NCBI GenBank assembly: GCA_964456225.1
Contig: CAYWAV010000010.1
Coordinates: 1 to 63,952, forward strand
Length of the DNA stretch: 63,952 bases
Direction: 5' to 3'
DNA from: an uncultured Chitinophaga sp.
GTDB lineage: Bacteria; Bacteroidota; Bacteroidia; 2-12-FULL-35-15
The notes under the pieces are model-generated. The model was not told where the DNA came from and searched no databases. It saw only the letters and a program-made list of their open reading frames with translations. Position 1 is the first letter of the stretch, and every line of letters starts with the position of its first letter. Shown here piece by piece: positions 3,126-63,952 of the stretch. Position numbers and translations under genes: made by a program.

Positions 3126-3145
3126 AGCATCCGTCATCAGTCTTC
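3126..3145. repeat. Heptamer-period array, right arm (inverted copy of 2678-2697)
   Basis: agcatccgtcatcagtcttc. Its reverse complement gaagactgatgacggatgct matches gatgaccgatgacggatgct at 18/20 positions. Overlaps the pyrD stop codon. Confidence 0.8.
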
Positions 3146-4168
3146 CAGCAATGCTTTGCAGATCTTTTTCGCTATTCCAGGCCCTTCGTATATAAAACCT
3201 GTATACACTTGAACCAAACTTGCTCCTGCTTTTAACATTTCAATTGCATCTTTTCCAGTATGAATTCCTCCTACTCCAATTATAGGAAATGCTTTGTTTG
3301 AATTATCACTTAAGTATTTTACAACTTCTACAGAACGCTTTGTTAAAGGTTTTCCACTTAATCCTCCCGCTCCATAAGTCTGGAGTTGGGAGTCTGGAGT
3401 TTGGAGACCTTCTCTTGAAATGGTTGTATTTGTTGCAATCACTCCATCAATTTTGGTTTCTTTTACAATAACAATTATATCATCCAGTTGTTCGTTGGTA
3501 AGGTCTGGAGCAATTTTTAAAAGAATCGCTTTTGGATTTTTCTTTTGAGCATTTAATTCCTTCACTCGCATCAACAATTTTGTCAAAGGTTCTTTATCCT
3601 GCAAAGCTCGTAATCCGGGAGTATTGGGCGAACTCACATTCACTACAAAATAATCTACATAATCGAAAAGTGCTTCAAAACATTTTTCATAATCACTTAC
3701 CGCATCTTCATTTGGTGTTAATTTATTCTTTCCAATGTTTCCACCGATAATAATATTCGTTTTTCTGGCTTTCAATCTTACAACTGCCGCTTCTGCTCCG
3801 CCATTGTTAAATCCCATACGGTTTATTAATCCTTCATCTTCGGGCAAACGAAACATGCGGGGTTTGTCGTTTCCCGATTGTGCTTTGGGAGTTAATGTTC
3901 CAATCTCAATAAATCCAAATCCATAATAACCCAACTCATCATACAACTTCGCATCTTTATCAAATCCTGCTGCTAATCCAACGGGGTTAGGAAATGTTAA
4001 TCCGAACAACTTTCGTTCTAATCGTTTATCATTAACCGAATAAATACTTTTTATTAAGGATGGAACTCCCGGGATAGAACAAAGGATTTTAATCGCTTTG
4101 AAAACAAGATGATGAATGTTTTCAGGCTCCCAAAGGAAGAAAATTGGCTTGATTATGCTTTTATACAT
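3137..4168 (-). CDS. pyrD: Quinone-dependent dihydroorotate dehydrogenase (class 2)
   Basis: [37 protein letters not shown] and GVGGI motifs. Confidence 0.97.
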
Positions 4169-4197
4169 GAGGCTAAATTACGCTGTAAAATTAACAG

Positions 4198-4242
4198 AAA
4201 AAAGCAAAGGCTTGATAAATTATATCAAGCCTTTGCTTTTTT
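4198..4242 (-). terminator. Intrinsic terminator downstream of the orphan T9SS CTD fragment
   Basis: 17-bp perfect stem aaagcaaaggcttgata/tatcaagcctttgcttt with A and T tracts. Confidence 0.8.
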
Positions 4243-4257
4243 AAATTAAAAATTATT

Positions 4258-4547
4258 TTATTGTTGCTTCAGCATTTTCTTTGTTTCGAAAATTTTGCCA
4301 TCCGCTACAAGTGTGTATGTGTAAATGCCATTTGACAAATCACTAGCAAATACATTCAATTGTCCTTTTCCTCTCTCATTCAAATCAACCGATTGAATTA
4401 ATTTACCTTGTGCATTGTAAAATAAAATTTGAGCTTTACTTATATTGTCTGGTAAAAAATAATTAATAGTTGTTTGTTCAGCAAATGGATTTGGAACGTT
4501 TTGTTCCAAAACAATGGATTGTCCATCTTTTAAATCAACAGTTGTTT
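4258..4547 (-). pseudogene. Orphan T9SS type A C-terminal sorting domain fragment, near-identical to the 3' end of the gene at 61106-63952
   Basis: 4291-4503 is identical to 61139-61351 (213 bp). Homology stops at 4547; in-frame TAA at 4552-4554; no ATG, signal peptide or passenger domain upstream. Confidence 0.85.
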
Positions 4548-4595
4548 TGGATTAAACAAATTGTGTGCGGTTTAAAATCGCTTTTTGTTAATAAT

Positions 4596-4626
4596 AAAAA
4601 AACCGATTCAGTCATTAATCGGTTTT
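4596..4626 (-). terminator. Intrinsic terminator of the TPR gene
   Basis: aaaaccgatt/aatcggtttt stem; T tract on the minus strand. Confidence 0.7.
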
Positions 4627-4645
4627 ACTTTTTTGGCATTCATAT

Positions 4646-5716
4646 TTATTTCTTTTTCTCAGGAGGCGGACCGCAATTTTCGGACAATGATTTTGCTTCT
4701 TCTATTCCTAATGAAGCTGCAATTTTAAAATCTTTGCAATGGCTGAAATCTTTTGAGTCGGCATTGGCCAATCCTCTTTTATAATAAGCTTGTCCATCTT
4801 TCGGTTTTATACGGATAGCTTCTGAATAATCATACATTGCCGAGCGGTAATTTTCCATTCCTTCACAAGCAGTTCCTCTTTGAATATAGGCTTCGTAATA
4901 ATTTGGACTCAATTTAACAACAGCAGAAAAATCACTGAATGCCATTTTCCAGTTGGAAGCAGCATTGTATACTAGTCCGCGTAAATAAAAAAGCTTCACA
5001 GTATCGGGATTAATTTTCAAGGCTTTGTTATAATCCAGAATTGCTTTATCGTATTTTTTTAGCAATACGTTGCACTGAGCACGTTTTATATAAGGTTGAA
5101 TAGAATCGCTATTTAATTGAATAGCTGAGGTATATTCGGCAATAGCTCCGGCATAATCTTTTGCTTCCATTTTAGTGTCTCCGTTAGAAACAAAAGTGCC
5201 GCTCATTGCCGAACAAGCGTTGGAGTTGTAAAGTCCTTTTGCTTTCTCATTTTTCAACCCTTTGGCCTTTCTCAAATCCATGCAACCCTTATCTTTTGAG
5301 CCTTTTGCAATAAGAATAATTCCTCTTTCACAAAATGCTTCTCCATATTTAGGGTCAATTGCTATTGCCTTTTCAAAATCAGCCAAGGCCTCTTCTTGTT
5401 TGCCTATGCCCACAAAGCACATTCCGCGACCATAATAAGGAGTTGCCAAATCGTGGTTATATAGAAAACCGTCAGGCATATCAGAAGTTGATCTTTGGTA
5501 TTCGTTTAAAGTGCCGTATTTTTTAAGTTTATCCAGATAAGTTGCAGTTGCTGGGTCGTTTAAGCGTATTGCATTTGTGTAATCCGTTTCTGCTTCAGCA
5601 AAGTTCCCTGCCGACAATTTAGTATTGGCATTTTGAATAATTACTGACAAACTTTGAGACACCGAAAACAAGGAAATCAATAAAAAAGAAAAAATAAAAG
5701 CCGACTTAATCTTCAT
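4646..5716 (-). CDS. Secreted tetratricopeptide repeat protein
   Basis: Signal peptide; multiple TPR units (AIAIDPKYGEAFCERG, ALKINPDTVKLFYLRG, AIRIKPKDGQAYYKRG). Confidence 0.9.
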   Translation of the reverse strand: MKIKSAFIFSFLLISLFSVSQSLSVIIQNANTKLSAGNFAEAETDYTNAIRLNDPATATYLDKLKKYGTLNEYQRSTSDMPDGFLYNHDLATPYYGRGMCFVGIGKQEEALADFEKAIAIDPKYGEAFCERGIILIAKGSKDKGCMDLRKAKGLKNEKAKGLYNSNACSAMSGTFVSNGDTKMEAKDYAGAIAEYTSAIQLNSDSIQPYIKRAQCNVLLKKYDKAILDYNKALKINPDTVKLFYLRGLVYNAASNWKMAFSDFSAVVKLSPNYYEAYIQRGTACEGMENYRSAMYDYSEAIRIKPKDGQAYYKRGLANADSKDFSHCKDFKIAASLGIEEAKSLSENCGPPPEKKK

Positions 5717-8325: not shown

Positions 8326-10571
8326 TAAAAAGTATATCTCAAACCAATAAAAAATCGTCTTCCTTGCATTGGAGCGTAGTTGTAGGAAGGATCAAATGTG
8401 TATCCATACGGATTGTTTTCTGCAATATTTTTATCAAAAGGATCAAATGGTCTTAAAATTGGATCACTTGGAGTAAAATCAAAAATATTTTTCACACCAC
8501 CATATAGCTCAAACCCTTTTTTAAATTTTTTGGTTAGTTGTACATTTTGAATTGTATACCAAGGAGATTGAGAAGGGCGATAATCATTAGGAACAACTGG
8601 TAAAAACATAGGACTCTTTACATTTCCTGTATAATCTATCGAAAAGCCTGTTTTTCCGAAAGAGTAACTTAGCGTAAAGTTTCCAGAAAGCTTAGGTGCA
8701 TGCAATTGAGGATATCTTACTTCAACATTAGAAGAATCTTTTTCAACACTATAAACATCCATATAAGTACAACCAATTATTGCTTTTAATCCGCTTGTAT
8801 GCATTATATCAATGCTTAGCGCTACTCCTTGCGAAACAGCATATCCATTTAAGTTGTCGAATAGTATCTTATTCGGATCAGAAATAAAATCACCAATAAT
8901 TTTATTTGTAAAATAGGTATAAAAAGCACTGGCATCTATACTAATATATGTGTTTTCTAAAACAATACTTTTTTGAAAATTCAAATTTACATTCCATGAT
9001 TTTTCAGGCTTCAAATTGTTTTTAATTACAACTTCTCGCGCTCCGGTAAGTGCAGCATGGTCTTCAGTGAATAAATTCACAACCCTGTAGCCATTACCCA
9101 TGCTCAACCGAATAATATTATTTTTATTCACTGCTAATTTAAAAGCTAGTCGAGGCGACAATATACTTCCATGTTCAGTATTATAATCATAGCGTAATCC
9201 GGCCAAAGTGATTACTTTTTTATACTTCAATTCTGTTTGCACAAATATTCCTGGAAGATAAGTGTGTTGTGGTTTGTTTCTTGGGAACAAACTATCAATA
9301 GAAACAGTACCTGGTGTGTTATCGTCATAATATGTATATCTAATAGGCAATCCAACTAATAAATCTGCACGTTCGCTCAACTTTTTATTCCAGTATAATT
9401 GTGCAAAAGCTATGTTTTGAACTGCCTGATATGACGTGGTTCCGTAATAAGAATTGTGGTTGTGATTATTAAAAGAATACTGCAAAAAAACATTCTCTTG
9501 TTTAATCGGCAATTGATAAATACCTATCAATTCATATCTCGAAGTATAAATAGATTCTCCATAAACACTATCTGTTCCTCTAAATTTGTTTTCATATTGC
9601 ATCTCTCCACCCCATCTATCTTCATATACAAATCTGGCAGCCACATTCGCTACTCTTTTGTCTTTTCTAACAAAATTCCATTTGTTAAAAATTGAGATTC
9701 TGTTCTGAAGTGTAATGTCGGTGAAGTTATCACCATTTTTATCCATCGGATTTTGAAAATTAAAGTAATTTATCCCTAACAAAGTATTTGCTTTCTTGGT
9801 GCTAGTTTTAAAACCTAAATCAATGTTGTATTCTTGATCTGTGGTTGCAAATAAATCCACATTTACACGTGGTGCATCTTTAGGGTTTTTAGTAACAACA
9901 TTGATTAAGCCACCAACCGCTTCGGATCCATACAAGGTACTTGCTGGCCCTTTTACCACTTCTATCCTATTCACCAAGCTGTTGGGAATTCCACTTAAGC
10001 CATATACCGTTGATAATGCACTTACAATTGGCATTCCGTCAATAGTAATCATTGTGTAGGGTCCTTCCATCCCATTTATATGAATGTCTCCTGTATTACA
10101 AACATTGCAATTCAATTGTGGCTGCACTCCATTAACCATTTGCATCGATTCAAATAAACTTGGAGTCGGATTTTTTTGAAATAATTTTGGAGTTAATACT
10201 TCAACCGGAATTGGAGAATCCAAACGCGACATTTCTTTCATTGTTCCAGTAATAACTATTTCATTTAAACTTCCTGTTAAAGAAAACAGTTCTTGGTCAA
10301 TTATTATAGGTTCAATAGACGTAATTTCAATTTTTCTTTTTTCAACTTTATACCCCGTCATTGTAATTACAAACTCATATTTTCCAAACGGAATTTCTTT
10401 AATTAAAAACAACCCTTTTTCATCCGTAGAAGCAGAAAATGTTGTTCCTGATAGACCAACTGAAACAAACTCGATCATCCTTCCGTCCGATGTAAGACGT
10501 CCTTTAATGCTTCCTGTTTGAGCGTTCGCATTTAAAAACATAAAAAAAGGTATCAAAATCAAAAATCGCAT
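8322..10571 (-). CDS. TonB-dependent receptor (CarboxypepD_reg-like N domain, plug, barrel), candidate metal importer
   Basis: EIVITGT TonB-box region, plug IEVVKGPASTLYGSEAVGG, C-terminal GRRFFIGLRYTFY. ATG 10571 preferred because the TTG at 10589 lies inside a -7 promoter box. Confidence 0.92.
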   Translation of the reverse strand: MRFLILIPFFMFLNANAQTGSIKGRLTSDGRMIEFVSVGLSGTTFSASTDEKGLFLIKEIPFGKYEFVITMTGYKVEKRKIEITSIEPIIIDQELFSLTGSLNEIVITGTMKEMSRLDSPIPVEVLTPKLFQKNPTPSLFESMQMVNGVQPQLNCNVCNTGDIHINGMEGPYTMITIDGMPIVSALSTVYGLSGIPNSLVNRIEVVKGPASTLYGSEAVGGLINVVTKNPKDAPRVNVDLFATTDQEYNIDLGFKTSTKKANTLLGINYFNFQNPMDKNGDNFTDITLQNRISIFNKWNFVRKDKRVANVAARFVYEDRWGGEMQYENKFRGTDSVYGESIYTSRYELIGIYQLPIKQENVFLQYSFNNHNHNSYYGTTSYQAVQNIAFAQLYWNKKLSERADLLVGLPIRYTYYDDNTPGTVSIDSLFPRNKPQHTYLPGIFVQTELKYKKVITLAGLRYDYNTEHGSILSPRLAFKLAVNKNNIIRLSMGNGYRVVNLFTEDHAALTGAREVVIKNNLKPEKSWNVNLNFQKSIVLENTYISIDASAFYTYFTNKIIGDFISDPNKILFDNLNGYAVSQGVALSIDIMHTSGLKAIIGCTYMDVYSVEKDSSNVEVRYPQLHAPKLSGNFTLSYSFGKTGFSIDYTGNVKSPMFLPVVPNDYRPSQSPWYTIQNVQLTKKFKKGFELYGGVKNIFDFTPSDPILRPFDPFDKNIAENNPYGYTFDPSYNYAPMQGRRFFIGLRYTFY

Positions 10572-10586
10572 CGTAGATATTTTCGA

Positions 10587-10594
10587 CAAATATA
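10587..10594 (-). promoter_or_regulatory. Bacteroidota -7 promoter element for the TonB receptor
   Basis: TATATTTG on the minus strand matches TAnnTTTG. Confidence 0.7.
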
Positions 10595-10598
10595 TGAT

Positions 10599-10624
10599 TT
10601 ATTTTTAGACTAGTCTAAAAATAA
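10599..10624. promoter_or_regulatory. Putative DtxR/MntR operator
   Basis: Perfect 26-bp palindrome ttatttttagactagtctaaaaataa between the divergent promoters of the TonB receptor and mntR-mntH. Confidence 0.82.
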
Positions 10625-10655
10625 TTTGAATACTTGTTTAAAAAGCATATCTTTG
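10625..10655 (+). promoter_or_regulatory. Bacteroidota sigma-A promoter (-33/-7) for mntR-mntH
   Basis: TTTG (10625-10628), 19-bp spacer, TATCTTTG (10648-10655). Confidence 0.75.
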
Positions 10656-10674
10656 TCCCATCAAATCATTAAAA

Positions 10675-11334
10675 ATGAATTCTTTTACAGAAGAAAACTA
10701 CTTAAAAGCTATCTATAAGCTAATTGAACAAAGCTGTTCATCGGTTTCAACAAATGCCATTGCTGAAAAAATGAATACAAAAGCAGCTTCTGTAACGGAT
10801 ATGCTTAAAAAACTATCCGATAAAAAACTTATTAATTATCAAAAATACCAAGGTGTAACATTAAGTAGTAAAGGTGAAAAAGTAGCGCTGAGCGTCATTC
10901 GGAAACACCGTTTATGGGAAATGTTTCTATTGGAAAAGCTTAATTTCAAATGGGATGAAGTACACGATGTAGCAGAACAGTTAGAGCACATTAACTCTGA
11001 TAAATTGATTGAGCAAATTGATAAATTTTTGAACTTCCCAAAATTTGACCCTCACGGAGACCCTATTCCAGATGCAAATGGTAAAATTCAAAGCCATAAA
11101 TCGAAATCAATTGCTAGTCATAAAAAAAATGATGTGCTAATTATGACTGGTGTTGTTGACCACTCTGCTGCGTTTTTGCAATTCTTAGATAAATCAGGTC
11201 TGGCTTTAGGTAATGAGATTAAAATAAAAGAACTGAACGACTTTGATCGTTCACTACAAATTATAATAAACAAAAAGAATACGTTGTTCATTAGTAATGA
11301 TGTTGCAAAAAACATATTAGTAATTACAAAATAA
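10675..11334 (+). CDS. mntR: DtxR/MntR family metal-dependent transcriptional repressor with FeoA-like C domain
   Basis: TEENYLKAIY, SVTDMLKKL HTH, RKHRLWE, HDVAEQLEH, DPHGDPIP motifs. Confidence 0.93.
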   Translation: MNSFTEENYLKAIYKLIEQSCSSVSTNAIAEKMNTKAASVTDMLKKLSDKKLINYQKYQGVTLSSKGEKVALSVIRKHRLWEMFLLEKLNFKWDEVHDVAEQLEHINSDKLIEQIDKFLNFPKFDPHGDPIPDANGKIQSHKSKSIASHKKNDVLIMTGVVDHSAAFLQFLDKSGLALGNEIKIKELNDFDRSLQIIINKKNTLFISNDVAKNILVITK

Positions 11335-11337
11335 ACA

Positions 11338-13209
11338 ATGACTGACAATTCACATAAATCCTTATCAGAAGTACACTCAAGTGTAGATACCAACAAAACT
11401 GGTTTCTGGAAAAAGCTTTTTGCTTTTATGGGTCCGGCATATTTGGTGAGTGTGGGCTACATGGATCCAGGGAATTGGGCAACCGATATTGCCGGTGGTA
11501 GTCAGTTTGGATACAAATTGCTTTGGGTTTTATTGATGAGTAATTTAATGGCTTTGCTTTTACAAAGTTTGAGTGCCCGTTTAGGATTAGTTAGAGGTTT
11601 GGATTTAGCACAAGCATCTCGACAAGCGTATCCAAAAACAATAAATTTTTTCAATTGGTTTTTAGCAGAAATTGCAATTGCAGCCTGCGATTTGGCCGAA
11701 GTAATAGGAATGGCAATTGGTTTGCAATTGTTATTCGAACTTCCATTATTAGCGGGAGTAAGTATCAGCGTTGCCGATACACTTTTGTTATTGGTGCTTC
11801 AGCGTTATGGAATGCGAAAAATGGAAGCATTCATTTTAGCATTGGTTGCAACAATAGGACTCGCATTTGTTGCTGAATTAATTTTTGCAAAACCCGATGG
11901 ATTAGAATTGGTAAAAGGCTTTATTCCTTCTATGCCAAACAATACAGCACTTTACATTGCTATTGGTATTATTGGAGCAACAGTAATGCCTCACAATTTA
12001 TACTTGCATTCTTCCCTAGTACAAACCCGAAAAATTGATCGCTCACTCAAAGGAATCAGGGATGCTATAAAATATAATTTCATTGATACGTTCATTGCTT
12101 TAAATATGGCCTTGTTTGTAAACGGAGCTATTTTGATATTAGCAGCAGCAGCTTTTTACACCACGGGAAACACCAACGTATCAGAAATACAAGATGCTCA
12201 CCGTTTATTAGAAAATATTTTAGGAAGTGCTGCTCCTACTCTTTTTGCTATTGCATTGATTGCCGCAGGACAAAGTTCAACATTAACGGGAACGCTTTCC
12301 GGACAAATTGTTATGGAAGGATATTTAAATTTACGAATCCAACCTTGGCTGAGACGATTGATTACACGACTAATCGCAATCATTCCTGCATTTCTGGTTA
12401 TATTTTTATTGGGCGAAGATGCAACCGGAGAATTATTGATTTTAAGTCAGGTTATTCTGAGTTTGCAATTAGGCTTTGCTGTTATACCATTGATTCACTT
12501 AACGAGTGATAAAAAACAAATGGGAGAATTTGCAAATAAAGGATGGGTGAAAATTTTAGCTTGGTTAATTGCTTTAACGATTGTTTCATTAAATGGAAAG
12601 TTGGTTATAGATACATTAGGCGAATGGATTGCTGAAGCAGAGAATCCTACCATTTATTATTTAACAGTTGTTCCATTGGTAGTAGGCGCAGGAGTTTTAT
12701 TATTATACATTACCTTTGCACCAATCATTAAGAGTGTGAAACAAAAAGCAACATATGCGCCAGATGGTCTTCCAAGAGACCTGGAGATTACCGATGCGAA
12801 AAAATACAAGCGCATTGCCGTTACCGTTGATTTCAGTTCAAGTGATAGTAAAGCCATCAGTAACGCTTTTTCGCAAGGTGGAAAAGAAGCTGCATATATT
12901 TTAATTCACATTGTAGAAACAGCCGGAGCTCGGATGATGGGCTCAGATATTGATGATTTGGAAACGCTTTCCGATCAATCGAATTTAGAAAAATACAAAT
13001 CCGACTTGGAAGCAAAAGGGTATACAATTGAGTTAAAACTCGGTTTTGGAAGTCCGAAAAAGAGTATTCCAGAAATAGTAAACAATTGCAATTGTGATTT
13101 ATTGGTGATGGGTGCTCACGGGCATAAAGCTTTCAAAGACTTATTATTCGGTACTACTTTGGATCAAGTAAGACACAATGTGAATGTGCCTGTTTTAATT
13201 GTTAAGTAA
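11338..13209 (+). CDS. mntH: Nramp-family Mn2+/Fe2+ transporter MntH with C-terminal universal stress protein (USP) domain
   Basis: YMDPGNW and MPHNLYLHS signatures; C-terminal RIAVTVDFS...VMGAHGHK...VPVLIV USP domain. Confidence 0.95.
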   Translation: MTDNSHKSLSEVHSSVDTNKTGFWKKLFAFMGPAYLVSVGYMDPGNWATDIAGGSQFGYKLLWVLLMSNLMALLLQSLSARLGLVRGLDLAQASRQAYPKTINFFNWFLAEIAIAACDLAEVIGMAIGLQLLFELPLLAGVSISVADTLLLLVLQRYGMRKMEAFILALVATIGLAFVAELIFAKPDGLELVKGFIPSMPNNTALYIAIGIIGATVMPHNLYLHSSLVQTRKIDRSLKGIRDAIKYNFIDTFIALNMALFVNGAILILAAAAFYTTGNTNVSEIQDAHRLLENILGSAAPTLFAIALIAAGQSSTLTGTLSGQIVMEGYLNLRIQPWLRRLITRLIAIIPAFLVIFLLGEDATGELLILSQVILSLQLGFAVIPLIHLTSDKKQMGEFANKGWVKILAWLIALTIVSLNGKLVIDTLGEWIAEAENPTIYYLTVVPLVVGAGVLLLYITFAPIIKSVKQKATYAPDGLPRDLEITDAKKYKRIAVTVDFSSSDSKAISNAFSQGGKEAAYILIHIVETAGARMMGSDIDDLETLSDQSNLEKYKSDLEAKGYTIELKLGFGSPKKSIPEIVNNCNCDLLVMGAHGHKAFKDLLFGTTLDQVRHNVNVPVLIVK

Positions 13210-24543: not shown

Positions 24544-27528
24544 TTATTTAATCACAGCCACTTTTTGCACGTGATCTTTTTTACCTGTTTTAATGTTCAA
24601 TTGATAAATACCTGCTGCAAAAGCATCTGTATCAATTTTCAAAGAGTGTCGTCCAATATTACTTTCTTTCACAGCTTGCGTAAAAATAACTTGTCCAATA
24701 GCATTTGTAAGAACTATACTTACATCTTCGCTGTTTAGTAATTCATAAGAAACATTAATAACGTTGCTTGCTGGATTTGGATAAACACTAACAAAAGCTA
24801 CAGATGTATTTTCATCAATACCTACAGAAGCTTGTTCGTACAAATAATAATCATCCAATGCACCTTCTACTAAACTACCACCATTTAAATATGCTCCGGT
24901 AATTAAACTATCAGAAGTCATGAAACGCATTTGAACTGTTGAGCTCAATGGCACATAATCGGTAACTCTGTAAGCAAATCGTCTCCAGCTTTTATCAGAA
25001 ATTTGTGTTGCCTCAACAGGAACCCAAGTAGCTCCACCATCGTTTGAGATTTGAGTGAGCCAATAATCTTGTCCAGGATTAGCGCCTGAGTTATTACTCC
25101 ACCAACGGTTGTAAGTAAAAATTGGATTGGTATAAGTACTCAAGTTATAAATAGGTGATTCTAATGTTGTGATTCCCGCATCCACATCGTTTGTTCCCAA
25201 ACCGGCTGTACTGGTTGGAGCATTTCCTGTGATTGCACACATACTTCCACCAGGAGTGGTTTGTGAGCCAGGTTGACAAATTGTAGAAGGTGTTCCCGGT
25301 GTTCCGTAGGAAGGAACCGGCACATCTACCAACCATTGTCCTGTTGTTGCATTATCAGAAGCAACACCTTGTCCCCAAGCACCAAAATTAACATCGAAAT
25401 CTTCTTCCACCATTAAGGAAACGCCATTCAAAATAAAATAAGGAAGGTTTGGATTGGCATCATCAGCACCTGCAGGTCGCACAACACTTAAGCTACCAGT
25501 AGTTCCCATCAAACCTAAATAATAACCAATTACAGTTCCATTTGGTTGAGCAGGAATGGTTGCTGTATAATTTATTCCACTTACAAGCGTCATTGGTGTG
25601 TTTGTCCATGCACCCAAACGGTTAATTTTATAATACAGCTGTACAGAAGTTAAAGCCCAAGGATAAACAACACTTACAGAAGCATTGATTGGAATACCTG
25701 CAGTAGAAACAGAAGCTGTAACAGGTGTGTGAGTAATAACTGCATTTGATAAAAGAGTGATGCCGTGTAAATCAAAAGCATCTACAATGGCGTTATCTCT
25801 TGGCGTTCCGTTTGTAATATCATTATCTCCACCATTGATTGGTAAATCATCCGTAGTTAATGCTTCAATTAAAATATCTACAAAAACTTGTCCTTCTGAT
25901 CCATTAGGGCCTGTTATTGTAGCATAAAATGTTTCTTTATACAAGTCCATCATTTCTTGCAAGTTGGCAAAATTCAAATTGGTATCCCACCAGCAGCCGG
26001 CAATAATTTCACCATCTGCATGCACCTCACCTACTAAATTCTGAGGATATACTTTTTTATTGATGTCATAACGTCTAACAACAACTGTTGGATCGGTATC
26101 ATCAAATCCAATTCCTAAAATAGGGCTAGCAGTTATTCCCAGTGCCCAGATATCAGCATAACCTTCACCCATTGCTCCGTTATCAAATGAGGCACCCTGT
26201 GAAGTATAAAATTTATCATTAATCCCATGACCATATTCGTGATAAACAACATCACCTACTTGTGCCAATGAATTGCATCCACCACCTGTTGCATAAAAAT
26301 TAATGGAAACACCATTGTAAAAAGCATTACAAGTACCTGTTTCGTCTACATTGGTTAATAATGCATTGTCCATATCCGTAAAAGCAGGGAATTTAGTTTT
26401 CATATAATCGTGAACAATATTCACATGATAGTATGCTGATAATTCACGAATGTTTGCATCTGCATTAAATGAATAGGTATTTGTTCCCGGATTTGCAGTT
26501 GCAGTATACGTAGGTGTTACTCCACCTGTTTCTACCTTTGACCAAAGTCCTTGTAATGAAAAAGTAACACTCACAGGAGTTACACTTGGCAATCCAATAT
26601 ATCCTAAAGCATCGGTATTATAAGTTGTTGCTCCTTGCACCATTTCCATATTTACCAATGGTTTTATCTGACTTGGGTCATAAGGATTTGTTGGATATAC
26701 AGTTCCTGTTATAGTAATATCCGTTGCAGCCGGAGGAGTTGGAGGTGCTGTTGGTTTTGCATCGTAGTGTAACACTTGGTTAGTACGAGAAAGTATTTCA
26801 CCTGTATTCGCATCTACCAATGTTAAGTATTTAGCAGGAACACCTGACAAATCAACCGTTTCAATGGTTGCTTCGTAAACTAAATGATAAATATTTTTTT
26901 TGAATTCAGGAACTGGTAAAATAAACAAATCGCTTTTAACAGATGTATTTACAACTGCATCCAAAATTCCAACTTTTGCAAATGTGATGGCATCGCTACT
27001 TGAGATGGTCGGACTAATAGAAATCGTAATGTCATTATAGACATCACAACCAAAAGTAACAACACTTCCTGATGGAGTCATTTTTACATACACATCGCTG
27101 TACAATACTTTTAATCCACTGTGGAACTGATTAAAATGTACATATTGAAAGTTTTCGGAAGTGCCGCCACCTGCATAGTTTAGTTCAGATACAGGAATAT
27201 TAAAACCCGAAAGTTTAGAAGTGATAAAGTTCATTGCTTTTGTTTGAGGATCCATTCCAAAAACAGGGACTGGTTTACCGTATGCACGATGAGGTTTAGC
27301 GTTTTCTTCATTAAAGATTACATACCAAGTGCCGTTTGTAGCAACAAAGTTTTGCCATTCCGCTGTTTCGCGCAATGATTGCTGAAAAGCAACATCCGGC
27401 AAACGTTTAGTGTTTTTAATAAAACGAACATCATTTTTGTTGGCATTAGAAATAATACCACCTTCAGATGCTGTTAGGCTAAACGATGCTAACATCATTA
27501 TAGCAAGTGTGTAATTTTTAATAGTCAT
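24544..27528 (-). CDS. Secreted zinc metalloprotease (M4 thermolysin/M36 fungalysin-like, FTP/PepSY propeptide) with T9SS type A CTD
   Basis: NAFY, HEYGH zinc motif, downstream GEGYAD third ligand, EVHADG; VYPNPA CTD. Confidence 0.9.
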   Translation of the reverse strand: MTIKNYTLAIMMLASFSLTASEGGIISNANKNDVRFIKNTKRLPDVAFQQSLRETAEWQNFVATNGTWYVIFNEENAKPHRAYGKPVPVFGMDPQTKAMNFITSKLSGFNIPVSELNYAGGGTSENFQYVHFNQFHSGLKVLYSDVYVKMTPSGSVVTFGCDVYNDITISISPTISSSDAITFAKVGILDAVVNTSVKSDLFILPVPEFKKNIYHLVYEATIETVDLSGVPAKYLTLVDANTGEILSRTNQVLHYDAKPTAPPTPPAATDITITGTVYPTNPYDPSQIKPLVNMEMVQGATTYNTDALGYIGLPSVTPVSVTFSLQGLWSKVETGGVTPTYTATANPGTNTYSFNADANIRELSAYYHVNIVHDYMKTKFPAFTDMDNALLTNVDETGTCNAFYNGVSINFYATGGGCNSLAQVGDVVYHEYGHGINDKFYTSQGASFDNGAMGEGYADIWALGITASPILGIGFDDTDPTVVVRRYDINKKVYPQNLVGEVHADGEIIAGCWWDTNLNFANLQEMMDLYKETFYATITGPNGSEGQVFVDILIEALTTDDLPINGGDNDITNGTPRDNAIVDAFDLHGITLLSNAVITHTPVTASVSTAGIPINASVSVVYPWALTSVQLYYKINRLGAWTNTPMTLVSGINYTATIPAQPNGTVIGYYLGLMGTTGSLSVVRPAGADDANPNLPYFILNGVSLMVEEDFDVNFGAWGQGVASDNATTGQWLVDVPVPSYGTPGTPSTICQPGSQTTPGGSMCAITGNAPTSTAGLGTNDVDAGITTLESPIYNLSTYTNPIFTYNRWWSNNSGANPGQDYWLTQISNDGGATWVPVEATQISDKSWRRFAYRVTDYVPLSSTVQMRFMTSDSLITGAYLNGGSLVEGALDDYYLYEQASVGIDENTSVAFVSVYPNPASNVINVSYELLNSEDVSIVLTNAIGQVIFTQAVKESNIGRHSLKIDTDAFAAGIYQLNIKTGKKDHVQKVAVIK

Positions 27529-59531: not shown

Positions 59532-61010
59532 ATGACACTTGAAACAATGGAGCCAACTGAAGGAAAAGCAAAAGTAACCGACGAATCAGAATTGAATGAT
59601 TGGATCAATCATGAAAAAGCGGCAATCGACCTTATCGGAATCATCGGAAAACTATGGTTTGAGAAATCAATCGAATTGATTCTTTTCAGAAATCAATTAG
59701 TCGATAGAAGTGCTAGTGAAATCATGAACTTGCACCACTATGCAAAAAACATTGTTAAAAAAGTTATTACGGTTGAAGATACCTTAGCCATTGCAACACA
59801 CATTTCTCAAATGGATATTTGTCCATCTCGTTTGGACATTGGAAAACTTGCTTTTGAATGGCAAAAAGAAAGTGCAAAATTTAAAACAGTTGAAGATTTC
59901 TTAAAAAATAAATTAGTTGAATTCATCGGCAAAAAACACAACATTACTCCAAAAGATGTTGTATTGTTTGGTTTCGGACGTATTGGCCGTTTAGCGGCTC
60001 GTGAATTAATTGCTCAAGCTGGTAAAGGAGAACAATTAAGATTAAAAGCAATTGTTACCCGCGGAAGTAGCGATGCTGATATTATCAAACGTGCAGATCT
60101 TTTGCGTACCGATTCAATACATGGAGTTTTTCCTGGAACCATCATTGAAGACTTAGATAAAAAAGCTTTAATCATCAACGGACATACCGTTTATATGATT
60201 GATGCAAAAAATCCAGAAGATGTAGATTATACTAAATATGGAATCAACAATGCGTTATTGATTGACAACACTGGTGTTTTTAGAGACAAGGCAGAATTGA
60301 GTCGCCACTTACAAGCGAAAGGAATTACAAAAGTTTTATTGACAGCTCCTGCAAAAGATATTCCAAACGTAGTTCACGGAGTAAATCACCAAACCATTGA
60401 TATTAAAACCGACAACATTCTTTCTGCTGCGTCTTGTACAACTAACGCAATTATGCCTGTTTTACAAGTGGTTCACAATAAATTGGGAATAGCTCGCGGA
60501 CATATTGAAACGGTTCACTCCTACACCAACGATCAAAACTTGTTGGACAACTATCACAAAAAATACAGAAGAGGTCGCTCTGCTGCATTAAATATGGTAA
60601 TTACGGAGACGGGTGCTGAAAGTGCTTTGAAAAAAGTATTGCCTGAATTGTCCGGGAAATTTACGGCTAACTCTGTGCGTGTACCAACACCAAATGTTTC
60701 GCTTGCAATTTTGAGTATGACCATTGATAAAGAAGTTACGAAAGAAGAAGTAAACGATATCTTGAAAGATGCTGCTTTAAACGGAGCACTCGTTGAACAA
60801 ATCCAATACATGAATTCAAATGAATTGGTTTCTACAGATGTAATTGGAAATCCTTGCCCTTCGGTATTCGACAGCCAAGCAACAATTGTTGGTCCAGATA
60901 AAAAGAACATTGTATTATATGTATGGTATGATAACGAATACGGTTATACTCGTCAAGTAATTCGCTTCAGCAAGTATATTGCAGAAGTTAGACGAATGGT
61001 TTATTACTAG
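59532..61010 (+). CDS. gap: Glyceraldehyde-3-phosphate dehydrogenase, long form with about 140-aa N-terminal extension
   Basis: GFGRIGR, DNTGVF, AASCTTN, HSYTNDQ, RVPTPNVS, WYDNEYGY. Confidence 0.92.
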   Translation: MTLETMEPTEGKAKVTDESELNDWINHEKAAIDLIGIIGKLWFEKSIELILFRNQLVDRSASEIMNLHHYAKNIVKKVITVEDTLAIATHISQMDICPSRLDIGKLAFEWQKESAKFKTVEDFLKNKLVEFIGKKHNITPKDVVLFGFGRIGRLAARELIAQAGKGEQLRLKAIVTRGSSDADIIKRADLLRTDSIHGVFPGTIIEDLDKKALIINGHTVYMIDAKNPEDVDYTKYGINNALLIDNTGVFRDKAELSRHLQAKGITKVLLTAPAKDIPNVVHGVNHQTIDIKTDNILSAASCTTNAIMPVLQVVHNKLGIARGHIETVHSYTNDQNLLDNYHKKYRRGRSAALNMVITETGAESALKKVLPELSGKFTANSVRVPTPNVSLAILSMTIDKEVTKEEVNDILKDAALNGALVEQIQYMNSNELVSTDVIGNPCPSVFDSQATIVGPDKKNIVLYVWYDNEYGYTRQVIRFSKYIAEVRRMVYY

Positions 61011-61051
61011 TACGAATAACGGATAAAACGAAATTACGAATCTGTGTGTAT

Positions 61052-61087
61052 AAAAAATCCTCTCAGAAATTATCTGAGAGGATTTTT
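61052..61087. terminator. Bidirectional intrinsic terminator
   Basis: aaaaaatcctctcaga / tctgagaggattttt between convergent gap and the S74 gene. Confidence 0.85.
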
Positions 61088-61105: not shown

Positions 61106-63952
61106 TTATTGTTGCTTCACCATTTTTTTCGTCTCAATAATTTTGCCATCCGCTACAAGTGTGTATGTGTAAATGCCATTTGACAAATCACTAGCAAATA
61201 CATTCAATTGTCCTTTTCCTCTCTCATTCAAATCAACCGATTGAATTAATTTACCTTGTGCATTGTAAAATAAAATTTGAGCTTTACTTATATTGTCTGG
61301 TAAAAAATAATTAATAGTTGTTTGTTCAGCAAATGGATTTGGAACGTTTTGCTCTAAAACTATTGACTGACCATCTTTTAAATCAACAGTTGTTTGAGTA
61401 GTTGATTGTGATTGACCTCCGTTTTGTTGCATTGAATGGCTATTACAACATGAATTGATGAGTGTTGCAAGTGCGTCTATCTGAGATTGCAATGATGTGT
61501 TTATCGAATCTTGAACATTGTTTTCAGTTTTCAAGCTATCAATTGTTTTCCCTTGCTCTTGAATACCTTTCATTAAAATAGCAGTAAATGCTTGGTAGTT
61601 TAATGTTTTGTAAGTTAAAGCAGGTATTACAACAGCGCCTATTGTATCTAGAACTGCCGGATGAACAATTTCTGTAACTAATTCAGGCAAAATTGTTTCA
61701 ACCTCTTGAGCGATAAACCCATACTGTTTTCTGCCACTCAAACCCATTTGAGGAAAATCCGCAGTTTTGAATTCATAAGTTTTTGGATTCAGTTGGTTAA
61801 TAATACTCATTGCATCCTGAATACTATCGATATTTTGTTTTAGAATAATATCAGAAGAAAAATTATCTGTACCTGTTCTAACAACATCGCCATTAAAATA
61901 ACCGGCAAAATTAATTCCTGTAGGTGGTGTTGTGCCTGAAGCCGGCAAAGCTTCTGCCCAAATCCCATAATTATTTATTGTTGAACCACCCGCAATAAAA
62001 TATCCGCCATAGTTAGTGCCTGCTGTACCCAAAGCTTCTCCTCTTACTGCAAAATTGGAGCCCGTAGAATTATTCGCAATTGCATGAACACCCATATTTT
62101 GGTTATTTATACCTGTTGCCTGAAATAAACCTCCTTTAGCTATTTTAGCTGCTTGGGTAAAGTAATTCGCTGTGCCTCTTACGCCAATAGTGTTGTCTGC
62201 ATCTCTAGCTATAAAATCACCCCCGATATTTGTATGCAGGAAATTTATTGGCTGTACGCCATTAGTCATGCCAAACACAGCACGATAAGTTCTTGGAGGT
62301 GTAGAAGTGGAAACATCACTATTAATAGAGCTTGTAGCAGTAGTGTTGATTGCGACAGAACCCACATTTTCCAACACACTAAATTTCGCTGGCATTGAAA
62401 CACCACAAGCATAACCAATTCCAACTACATCTTGATTTGGAATTAAAGCTGCTGGATCAAACGGTATTGCTTGTCCTGAAAAACGATAATTAAATGTATT
62501 TAACGGAATTTCATAATCTGTTCCAACAATTGGATTTGGAGTGGCTGTACAATAATTACCAATGCCGCTTCCTGCTGTTGCTGGAACATAAATAACATCT
62601 CCGTCAGCATCTACCGACAAAACACCTGATCCTGGATTAGCAAGCGTTGGAGATGTTGTATTTAAATTTGTAAAACGTAAACCACTACTTCCACCAACCG
62701 TTGTAGTTGCTTCCGAAGAATTTACTTCCAAAGTTTGTGTTGGATTGATACTTCCGCCAAAATATAAATTAGTTGTTGGATCTCCTCCAATTCCGGTCCA
62801 AATATGTGCATTAGTTATTGCCACATTTGTTGAGGGAGTCATTCTCATTGCTTCAACTCCGTTTATTCCATTTGATGGAGGAAGACCAGGAGTTCCAACA
62901 GTAGCAGATGTAAAAATAAATCGCATATTATCTGGCCCAATTGGAAAAGGACCTGCAGGACCTGCATTGTCTCCCCAGTTGATTACTGCATCATATCTGT
63001 CGATTGGAAAAGAACCTGGTTCTTGTTTTAAACCAACGTACATATTGTCGGTTCCATTTGCTGTAAATGTTCCAACATCCATCCAAGGTCTCCATCCATC
63101 ATTTGTTGCGCCTGTATTGTAACCTAGGTGCATTAAACTTAATGGACGAGTTACAGGGCTTGTTGGATTGTGACTAATTGAAACGCGAGTTAAATTTCCT
63201 GGTAAACCACCCGGATTAAAAAGGACACCATTGTTTAGTGCTCCTATTTGCATGATGCGTATACGCTCACCGTTATTGGCATACAAAGTCAACCGATCAT
63301 TTTCCTGCTGATTAATTTGGGCTTCTCTGTTGACCGCTGTTGTAGGCGCATAACCTACTTTTAAACCATCAGTTGCGGTTTGGCCCGTTCCATTTTCGTT
63401 GGTAATCTGCATGAAAACAGGCTTGTTCAAATCCAAACTCATGTGCAACAAGTTTTGTGGACGAACATAAGGCACTCCTACTGGTCCAAAAGTATTTCCG
63501 AGCCCCATTTCTCCTGTTGGAGTAAATCTTGCAATATGCCGACCGTCCAAGTCGTTTTCATCACTAAAATTGGTGCTTACCACACTACTGGCTCCCGTTC
63601 CTATGAAACGGAAAGCAAAATCGTCAGGGCCAAAAGGAGAGCTGTTATTATCGCTCCACGAAACAACCATTTCAGATTGTTCTGCAACAGTTGGTAAGGT
63701 TCTTACTCCGAAATACATCAAGTCGGTATTTCCCGTAAAGGTAATACCCGTTTTCATCCAAGGGCGATAACCAAATTCCTGAGTAAAGTTAGCAGCAGGA
63801 TTTTGCGCTCCATTCAAATGCAACATAGAAAATGCACCCTTATTATTGTAAATTGTACCGCCACCGAACTGTGTAGGAGTATTCTCCCCTATTAACAAAT
63901 AACCACTAGTGTTTACTACAGGAAATGTATAACCATTGATTGGGTACTGTGT
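61106..63952 (-). CDS. Tailspike-like protein with peptidase S74 intramolecular chaperone domain, coiled coil and T9SS type A CTD (5' end beyond the window)
   Basis: Frame is open to the window end (TQYPINGYTFPVVNTSGYLLIGEN...). FSSDIILKQNI...LNPKTYEF...YGFIAQEVETILPELV...LNYQAFTAILMKGIQEQ S74 domain; LEQNVPNPF...GIYTYTLV...ETKKMVK CTD. Confidence 0.9.
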   Translation of the reverse strand, partial: TQYPINGYTFPVVNTSGYLLIGENTPTQFGGGTIYNNKGAFSMLHLNGAQNPAANFTQEFGYRPWMKTGITFTGNTDLMYFGVRTLPTVAEQSEMVVSWSDNNSSPFGPDDFAFRFIGTGASSVVSTNFSDENDLDGRHIARFTPTGEMGLGNTFGPVGVPYVRPQNLLHMSLDLNKPVFMQITNENGTGQTATDGLKVGYAPTTAVNREAQINQQENDRLTLYANNGERIRIMQIGALNNGVLFNPGGLPGNLTRVSISHNPTSPVTRPLSLMHLGYNTGATNDGWRPWMDVGTFTANGTDNMYVGLKQEPGSFPIDRYDAVINWGDNAGPAGPFPIGPDNMRFIFTSATVGTPGLPPSNGINGVEAMRMTPSTNVAITNAHIWTGIGGDPTTNLYFGGSINPTQTLEVNSSEATTTVGGSSGLRFTNLNTTSPTLANPGSGVLSVDADGDVIYVPATAGSGIGNYCTATPNPIVGTDYEIPLNTFNYRFSGQAIPFDPAALIPNQDVVGIGYACGVSMPAKFSVLENVGSVAINTTATSSINSDVSTSTPPRTYRAVFGMTNGVQPINFLHTNIGGDFIARDADNTIGVRGTANYFTQAAKIAKGGLFQATGINNQNMGVHAIANNSTGSNFAVRGEALGTAGTNYGGYFIAGGSTINNYGIWAEALPASGTTPPTGINFAGYFNGDVVRTGTDNFSSDIILKQNIDSIQDAMSIINQLNPKTYEFKTADFPQMGLSGRKQYGFIAQEVETILPELVTEIVHPAVLDTIGAVVIPALTYKTLNYQAFTAILMKGIQEQGKTIDSLKTENNVQDSINTSLQSQIDALATLINSCCNSHSMQQNGGQSQSTTQTTVDLKDGQSIVLEQNVPNPFAEQTTINYFLPDNISKAQILFYNAQGKLIQSVDLNERGKGQLNVFASDLSNGIYTYTLVADGKIIETKKMVKQQ

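Follow-up and report, generated by a model that had tools for sequence, protein, structure and literature searches.

The orphan T9SS type A C-terminal sorting domain (CTD) that lies between a TPR-repeat protein gene and pyrD is, as we read the evidence, probably a non-functional recombination scar, the 3' stub of a Peptidase_S74 T9SS cargo gene that formerly stood in the TPR-pyrD spacer. The window that we analyzed is the whole of contig C10 (63,952 bp) of a 254-contig, 4.1-Mb MAG with ~35% G+C. In it the orphan (copy A) aligns gap-free, at 4258-4547, to positions 61106-61395 at the end of a tail-fibre-like cargo gene 57 kb away, gene B (copy B), and both copies lie on the minus strand (Table 1). 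This alignment bears out an earlier sequence-only reading, which had matched the same two stretches and described their core as identical.

Table 1. Positions of the features discussed (window coordinates unless a contig is named)
Feature	Position	Strand	Remarks
pyrD (dihydroorotate dehydrogenase)	3137..4168	-	downstream neighbour of the orphan
Terminator hairpin T1	4198..4242	-	after the orphan; 20 pairs plus T-run; homologous to the congeners' single TPR-pyrD spacer terminator
Orphan T9SS type A CTD	4258..4551	-	97 codons plus stop TAA 4258-4260
3' divergent patch	4272..4290	-	6 nt differences from B: 3 synonymous, F/I (2 nt) and L/V
Identical core, copy A	4291..4503	-	213 bp = 61139-61351 exactly; double depth in unitig graphs
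5' divergent patch	4504..4522	-	6 synonymous differences in 7 consecutive codons (G, Q, S, I, L, E)
Second A = B identical stretch	4523..4547	-	25 bp; differs from relatives' CTDs; ends in AAACAAC
Lineage-specific 57-nt spacer	4541..4597	-	common to strain X9, where segment Z, not a CTD, follows
In-frame TAA	4552..4554	-	closes the frame just upstream of the orphan domain
Terminator hairpin T2	4599..4626	-	after the TPR gene, upstream of the orphan; also in X9
TPR-repeat protein gene	4646..5716	-	upstream neighbour; N-terminal hydrophobic leader; pyrD-adjacent in congeners
Hairpin Tb	61053..61087		separates gap from gene B; homologue of the ancestral bidirectional gap/dapA terminator
Gene B, Peptidase_S74 tail-fibre-like T9SS cargo	61106..63952	-	runs off the contig end
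Identical core, copy B	61139..61351	-	inside gene B
Accessory module loci	L079:132-6227; L052:4956-9120; L089:2333-6524; own C27:7625-11396

Results

A complete sorting domain that is predicted to be non-secretable

The orphan translates into 97 residues (SKTTVDLKDG...KKMLKQQ*) and is a complete CTD, its frame unbroken by stops or frameshifts in several strains and samples. Its sequence places it among the T9SS type A CTDs, scoring 37.5 bits against PF18962 (Por_Secre_tail; curated cut-off 27) and 37.3 bits against TIGR04183 (curated cut-off 23) over window positions 4261-4551. The genome has a T9SS, since it encodes a PorU-type sortase (NF033707, C2:3193-6555, 1358 bits against a cut-off of 420). 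Inspection of the reading frame across 4258-4551 found no ATG, no signal peptide and no passenger, and a TAA closes the frame just upstream, all as the sequence-only reading had stated; the orphan is not the C terminus of a Sec-signal protein with a passenger and is not a functional cargo gene. A TTG at 4509 is the earliest alternative start and gives a longest ORF of 83 aa without a signal peptide. Gene callers report an 83-aa "Por_Secre_tail" protein here, and that call needs flagging as a remnant. Because the stub stands directly after a terminator and has neither a start codon nor a Sec signal, it is predicted to be non-secretable, and it seems to be driven by nothing. The orphan is a real, single-copy stub that is probably dead, and among the type A CTD matches found in its own genome it is the only one that is clearly passenger-less.

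Other irregular CTD frames came to light alongside it. In the same genome, a 125-aa CTD-bearing ORF (C7:25540-25917) adjoins a 428-aa cargo (25874-27160) with nearly the same CTD end (LNAGYNKLDIDLS...), a pair that may be another broken tandem paralog. A third paralog on C27, whose CTD is 76% identical at the nucleotide level, appears divided into a 426-aa head ORF (8605-9885) and a 343-aa ORF with S74 plus CTD (10365-11396), which may be one more copy in decay or else an error of assembly. Congener G008 has 156-aa CTD frames that were considered as orphans and rejected as contig-end truncations.

Both copies of the repeat are real

We followed the repeat in Logan unitig graphs (k=31) of two microbial-mat metagenome runs, X1 and X2. 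All four flanks are present at single depth (X1/X2: A-left 19/20, B-left 19.7/22.3, A-right 19.6/16.2, B-right 24.7/16.9), and the core is a separate unitig covering exactly 4291-4503 at a depth of 36.8/34.8, with no bubble inside the 213 bp in either graph. Since the flanks are single-depth and the core is double-depth and bubble-free, the core is truly present twice and truly identical. How the left and right flanks are paired across the 213-bp core in our strain reflects the assemblers' repeat resolution and lies beyond the reach of unitigs.

Assemblies of other samples contain the same loci. A JGI contig (L056) spans TPR, orphan and pyrD with 1 mismatch in 3001, an ENA contig (L057/L082) spans them with 3 mismatches in 2869, and low-depth unitigs from runs X10, X11 and X12 cross the orphan's 3' or 5' junction. 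For the other locus, JGI contig L079 reproduces the gap-B region at 99.85% and reaches 3.4 kb beyond the end of the window contig. The coverage comparison that had been proposed as a check thus resolves into two true copies (core ~36x against ~16-25x in the flanks in X1 and X2), and the unitig depths together with the independent assemblies refute the alternative first raised beside the sequence-only reading, the assembly collapse of a multicopy repeat.

The identical core lies between diverged patches

All 12 mismatches between A and B fall within two 19-nt patches, 4272-4290 and 4504-4522. A codon comparison upheld the earlier count of nine synonymous differences among the 12 differing bases, including all six in the 5' flank, and the F/I and L/V replacements near the end. 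Random placement of 12 mismatches over 290 positions yielded an identical run of at least 213 in 2 of 200,000 permutations, and a first-term analytic estimate for a 213-nt clean run is 8e-7. Divergence outside the core amounts to 12 differences in 77 nt (~15%), and homology to gene B stops at the AAACAAC microhomology at 4541-4547.

Both the A-type and the B-type patches are found among the CTDs of relatives, and both patch types appear, from these comparisons, to be old polymorphisms of the family. Because the two CTDs are otherwise ~15% diverged and both patches pre-exist in relatives, the 213 bp, together with the 25 bp, are best taken as a recent tract of homologous exchange or conversion, a class that fits both the length of the tract and the pre-existing variants at its bounds. 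The clustering of the mismatches, the old patch polymorphisms and strain-to-strain differences in the shared tract all speak for homogenisation. Of the original proposal that the core marks recent gene conversion, the recent homogenisation stands, while conversion and crossing-over are indistinguishable here. The ends of the tract vary by strain: in X5, the 3' part on the B side differs through 61175, and a third, mosaic 5' patch also occurs in the X5 data.

In all available contigs and unitigs, the left patch always accompanies the left flank and the right patch the right flank, so that 4272-4290 is linked to the T1/pyrD side and 4504-4522 to the T2/TPR side. Across the core, all four combinations of left and right flank are seen in public data: A/A (ours, L056 and L057), B/B (ours and L079), A-left/B-right (X9), and B-left/A-right (L074 and the end of L081). 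The recombinant-type junctions come from a single k=31 unitig of the diverged strain X9 and from one assembled contig, L074. The latter, a JGI contig, runs from gap through Tb, B-left and the core into A-right, T2 and TPR. Either it is a misjoin across 178 nt of identity that cannot be phased or, just as plausibly, it captures a true junction of a tandem duplication or a circle. The suggestion that the CTD serves as a recombination anchor gains support in this one case from the four combinations, with L074 possibly a misjoin.

The TPR-pyrD spacer in congeners

Ten same-genus genomes carry TPR and pyrD on one contig, and in none of them does a CTD lie between the two genes. The spacer measures ~60-155 bp in 6 of the 10, the two TPR/pyrD matches abut in G009, and in 3 congeners the spacer holds an unrelated 139-146-aa gene on the other strand. 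That gene (MNKITTSTAE...) is conserved at L045:529-969 (G014), L046:517-936 (G018) and L047:498-917 (G004). Judging from these arrangements, the spacer seems to have been filled independently more than once.

G009 and G011 have a single terminator in this spacer, to which T1 and the sequence on the pyrD side can be aligned, and this homology identifies T1 as a resident of the site; the orphan had been credited with keeping its own terminator, which proves wrong, as T1 is not CTD-borne. T2 is lineage-specific like the 57-nt spacer: the aligned congener spacers hold no clear counterpart of it, the GTDB species representatives have no exact match of the 57-nt spacer, and an Rfam scan of 4100-4750 returned just hairpin noise below gathering scores.

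G009 has an orphan of its own elsewhere, at L042:1501-1665 (C2:44748-44912), which comprises the last 55 codons of this CTD type with 93% amino acid identity to ours. This intergenic half-domain stub is cut mid-domain and lies between two terminators, and no full-length partner was found for it in G009 at E<1e-15.

A related strain carries a passenger at the orphan's place

Strain X9 is a relative whose TPR and gap sequences are ~92% and ~93% identical to ours and whose pyrD side is at least 99.6% identical. One unbranched X9 unitig of 415 nt starts on the 4230-4290 side, which is the orphan's own 3' end, with 26 nt of the orphan's downstream spacer and the A-type 3' patch; it then passes through the core (2 SNPs) into the B-type 5' patch and 61396-61492. 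Further X9 unitigs continue to 62336 with 1 difference and then diverge, giving a B-type passenger of at least 940 nt. Since no B-type 3' patch was seen in X9 or its sister run X14, the strain appears to have a single copy of the CTD, attached to a passenger and next to pyrD. The comparison of relatives for a full-length gene at 4258 was therefore divided, with ten congeners lacking a CTD and X9 bearing a passenger.

X9 is not a clean ancestor, its 5' patch being B-type and not A-type. On its other side, the X9 TPR unitig (L073) matches ours down to 4541 and then enters a 170-nt segment, Z. After Z comes an N-terminally truncated, frameshifted BNR/Ycf48-like gene, not the second CHU_C-type gene described below, and Z and the passenger are on separate X9 sequences. 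An intact copy of the BNR/Ycf48-like gene is present in our genome at C7:10765-11811.

The 5' border of the orphan and segment Z

The 5' junction of the orphan falls exactly at the linker/CTD boundary, on the 7-nt microhomology AAACAAC. In coding orientation, with a slash at each junction, the orphan reads ...TTTAATCCAAAACAAC/TGTTGATTTAAAAG, the X9 spacer reads ...TTTAATCCAAAACAAC/AATTTAGG, where AATTTAGG is the start of Z, and the gene B boundary reads ...ACTACTCAAACAAC/TGTTGATTTAAAAG. The 5' end of the stub is thus the X9-type spacer, ...CCAAAACAAC, joined to the B-type linker/CTD boundary, ...AAACAAC/TGTTGAT..., and is an illegitimate join on 7 nt of microhomology. With the X9 unitig, this join at the linker/CTD boundary supports the first suggestion that the orphan is a remnant whose passenger was deleted or swapped.

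The two copies of Z (L073:1394-1563 and L079:1713-1882) are 100% identical over 170 nt. In our own strain, on L079, Z sits upstream of the second CHU_C-type gene and B at the gap locus. Our strain thus has, in physical linkage with the B module, the very sequence that adjoins the 57-nt spacer in X9. The own-strain Z junction on L079 does not mirror the orphan junction as a simple reciprocal would: we dropped the idea that the junctions J1 and J2 are reciprocal products of one event, which predicts ...ACTCAAACAAC/AATTTAGG on L079 where ...GTCATTCCAAAC/AATTTAGG is found. When 60 congeners and all GTDB species representatives were searched, Z and the 57-nt spacer had no match there other than the (GA)n run. 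This microsatellite (L079:1873-1915, L073:~1555-1565) marks the precise point, to the right of Z, at which our strain and X9 part in sequence.

Gene B belongs to an accessory two-gene module

On L079, gene B is complete, encoding 1037 aa with a signal peptide, and is preceded by a CHU_C-type gene. Its Peptidase_S74 (endosialidase-chaperone, tail-fibre) domain lies 110 residues upstream of the CTD. The contig reads, in order, a first CHU_C-type gene (326 aa), a 217-aa S74 head fragment, an 88-nt piece, Z, the (GA)n run, the second CHU_C-type gene (323 aa), full-length B and a convergent gap. The head fragment (L079:1125-1778) consists of a signal peptide and ~165 residues fused to foreign sequence, and a 58-nt piece of it, ...ENSDLIYVGRKSEGTGP, also occurs at the start of our C118 (1-58), next to dapA; the stretch shared with C118 would represent a further rearrangement or a strain-variant junction. 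We considered the 217-aa head as the other half of the orphan's gene and set it aside, because it is a composite (S74 head, 88 nt, Z) for which this is not demonstrable.

The S74/CTD gene and its CHU_C-type partner make up an accessory two-gene module. In G044 and L052 the module stands between gap and dapA, oriented opposite to ours; it is absent there in G020, and a further copy is on C27 of our genome. A CHU_C (type B sorting domain) protein of 323-343 aa always stands directly before the S74/type A CTD gene (measured distances are 12-13 nt), and the pair looks, from its sequence contexts, like a recurrent accessory unit. Among hundreds of homologues, the C-terminal S74-CTD part is common and the N-terminal parts vary. 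ENA contig L054 (1108-7459) holds two copies of the module (P0001) in perfect inverted repeat, separated by 112 nt, which is either a hairpin assembly artefact or an orientation polymorphism of the module. After gap, at 61008-61060 of the window, lies a REP- or MITE-like intergenic element of ~50 nt (gtacgaataacggataaaacgaaattacgaatc...) with many copies in the genome and in congeners, including our C120, C39, C99, C7, C8, C89, C30 and C74.

The S74 chaperone domain of gene B is N-terminal to the CTD (residues 700-760 of the partial frame). In phage fibres, the S74 chaperone domain is autoproteolytic. If that of gene B cleaves itself in the same way, the mature fibre would be severed from the sorting domain and from any A-LPS anchor.

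Discussion

The observations can be brought together if the TPR-pyrD spacer was formerly occupied by an accessory insert comprising T2, the 57 nt, Z and then the partner gene, the S74 passenger and the CTD. Of this insert, a block reaching from Z to the linker, with the partner gene and the passenger, would have left this site through the microhomology join, and the removed block, or a copy of it, would now be at the gap locus 57 kb away. One exchange point would have been homologous and within the CTD, and the exchange there, or later gene conversion, would have left the 213-bp tract (and the 25 bp) identical between CTDs that are otherwise ~15% diverged. Several orders of events and paths of rearrangement are possible; in the best reading, the CTD core is a tract of homologous exchange or gene conversion.

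It is rather unlikely, in our judgment, that the spacer never held a passenger and that the CTD of gene B alone was copied into it illegitimately, as a piece reaching from the linker boundary to ~19 nt past the stop, with the patches later overwritten by conversion from paralogs. Such a partial duplication is consistent with the lack of a cargo gene at the TPR-pyrD site in any congener, with the identity of A and B over 4523-4547 and their weak similarity for ~19 nt past the stop, and with the microhomology join at the orphan's 5' border. Yet in X9 a gene with a passenger occupies exactly this place and shares the 3' patch and spacer of the orphan; neither patch is ever seen apart from its outer flank; and nearly all differences in the patches are synonymous, the pattern that divergence under selection produces in intact genes.

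A quite improbable reading gives the stub a function, with the promoterless CTD and terminator kept as a landing pad or silent cassette for passenger capture or for CTD repair by homologous recombination. The four flank combinations across the core exist in nature, as such a role would have it, and the stub is intact in several strains and samples, but this intactness is also expected of a young scar that is held identical by conversion. No recombinase lies nearby, and an array of cassettes is disfavoured because the orphan is the sole clearly passenger-less copy among the type A CTD matches found in the genome. Moreover, type A CTDs are cleaved off on T9SS export, and varying a cleaved-off CTD alters nothing on the surface.

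Attachment sites of integrative elements can displace the 3' ends of genes, and we consider it very improbable that the two copies are att-like duplications of this kind, left by a circular element of 57 kb that entered the 3' end of a cargo gene and displaced its native end, with X9 as the empty site and L074 as the circle junction. The resemblance lies in direct repeats of a gene's 3' end with one copy orphaned, and this reading formally covers all four junction types. What lies between the repeats is, however, core chromosome with conserved outside synteny: the TPR-pyrD and gap-dapA adjacencies are ancestral in congeners, so that each end of the 57 kb is a native neighbour of the flank outside it. 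Among the genes of the segment are rpoD, gap, htrA and smpB; contig C10 has no match to a tyrosine recombinase (PF00589), and X9 retains its own diverged TPR and gap. Because its end genes are ancestral neighbours of the genes outside, it holds the four genes just named and no tyrosine recombinase is present on the contig, the 57 kb is not an island, and we rejected an integrative element with the core as att on synteny, gene content and the absence of an integrase.

The chance that a collapsed or consensus repeat or a chimeric contig created the pattern is close to negligible, for although the window, one complete contig among the 254 of the MAG, stops within gene B, and the repeat interior is a break point of other samples' contigs, two runs show four single-depth flanks with one double-depth, bubble-free core and independent assemblies of other samples reproduce both loci.

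We return to the orphan as a scar of a lost cargo gene. Its value is that of a dated, well-bounded footprint. It shows that the crossover in moving or rebuilding a surface-protein gene can fall in a T9SS sorting domain, and that events of this kind happened so recently that strains within one mat population still differ in them. If CTD-anchored exchange is common, it would help to explain why close relatives differ so strongly in their T9SS cargo repertoires. A broader idea, which we hold to be doubtful, is that the conserved 3' end, the S74 chaperone region with the CTD, acts as a portable homology arm for passengers and that stubs are both footprints and re-usable landing pads. Were this true, passengers would move between sites and strains by one CTD crossover and one illegitimate join, and the four flank combinations would be snapshots of ongoing cassette exchange at the level of the population, not the result of a single accident.

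Silent cassettes drive antigenic variation in Neisseria pilS/pilE and Borrelia vls, and the orphan resembles them as a promoterless partial copy that shares conserved sequence with an expressed gene. Unlike those systems, there is here a single stub and no array, and the shared part is a cleaved export signal, not an exposed variable part. The contigs and unitigs compared gave no evidence of directed, recurrent conversion at the orphan, which does not belong among silent donor cassettes of the pilS/vls type. The orphan also resembles pseudogene stubs that gene conversion holds close to a functional paralog, being a promoterless fragment whose identity is mosaic, with an identical tract bounded by diverged patches; it differs from such stubs in that the fragment is exactly one structural domain, since the break falls at the linker/CTD boundary.

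Domain rearrangement and allelic exchange of T9SS cargo are known from the gingipains and HagA (rgpA, kgp and hagA) of P. gingivalis (PMC5266723). As in that organism, the cargo considered here is modular with a conserved C-terminal domain, and segments are exchanged by homologous recombination or conversion between paralogs and strains (PMC5266723). There, the exchanged units are adhesin domains inside the intact genes of a pathogen (PMC5266723), whereas here a locus has been left with a CTD alone, the cargo is Peptidase_S74 tail-fibre-like, the host is an environmental mat bacterium, and the second breakpoint is illegitimate, at a microhomology. In these respects the orphan adds a well-resolved case to a class of events already known; no new mechanism is called for, and the case belongs to ordinary genome dynamics, here well documented.
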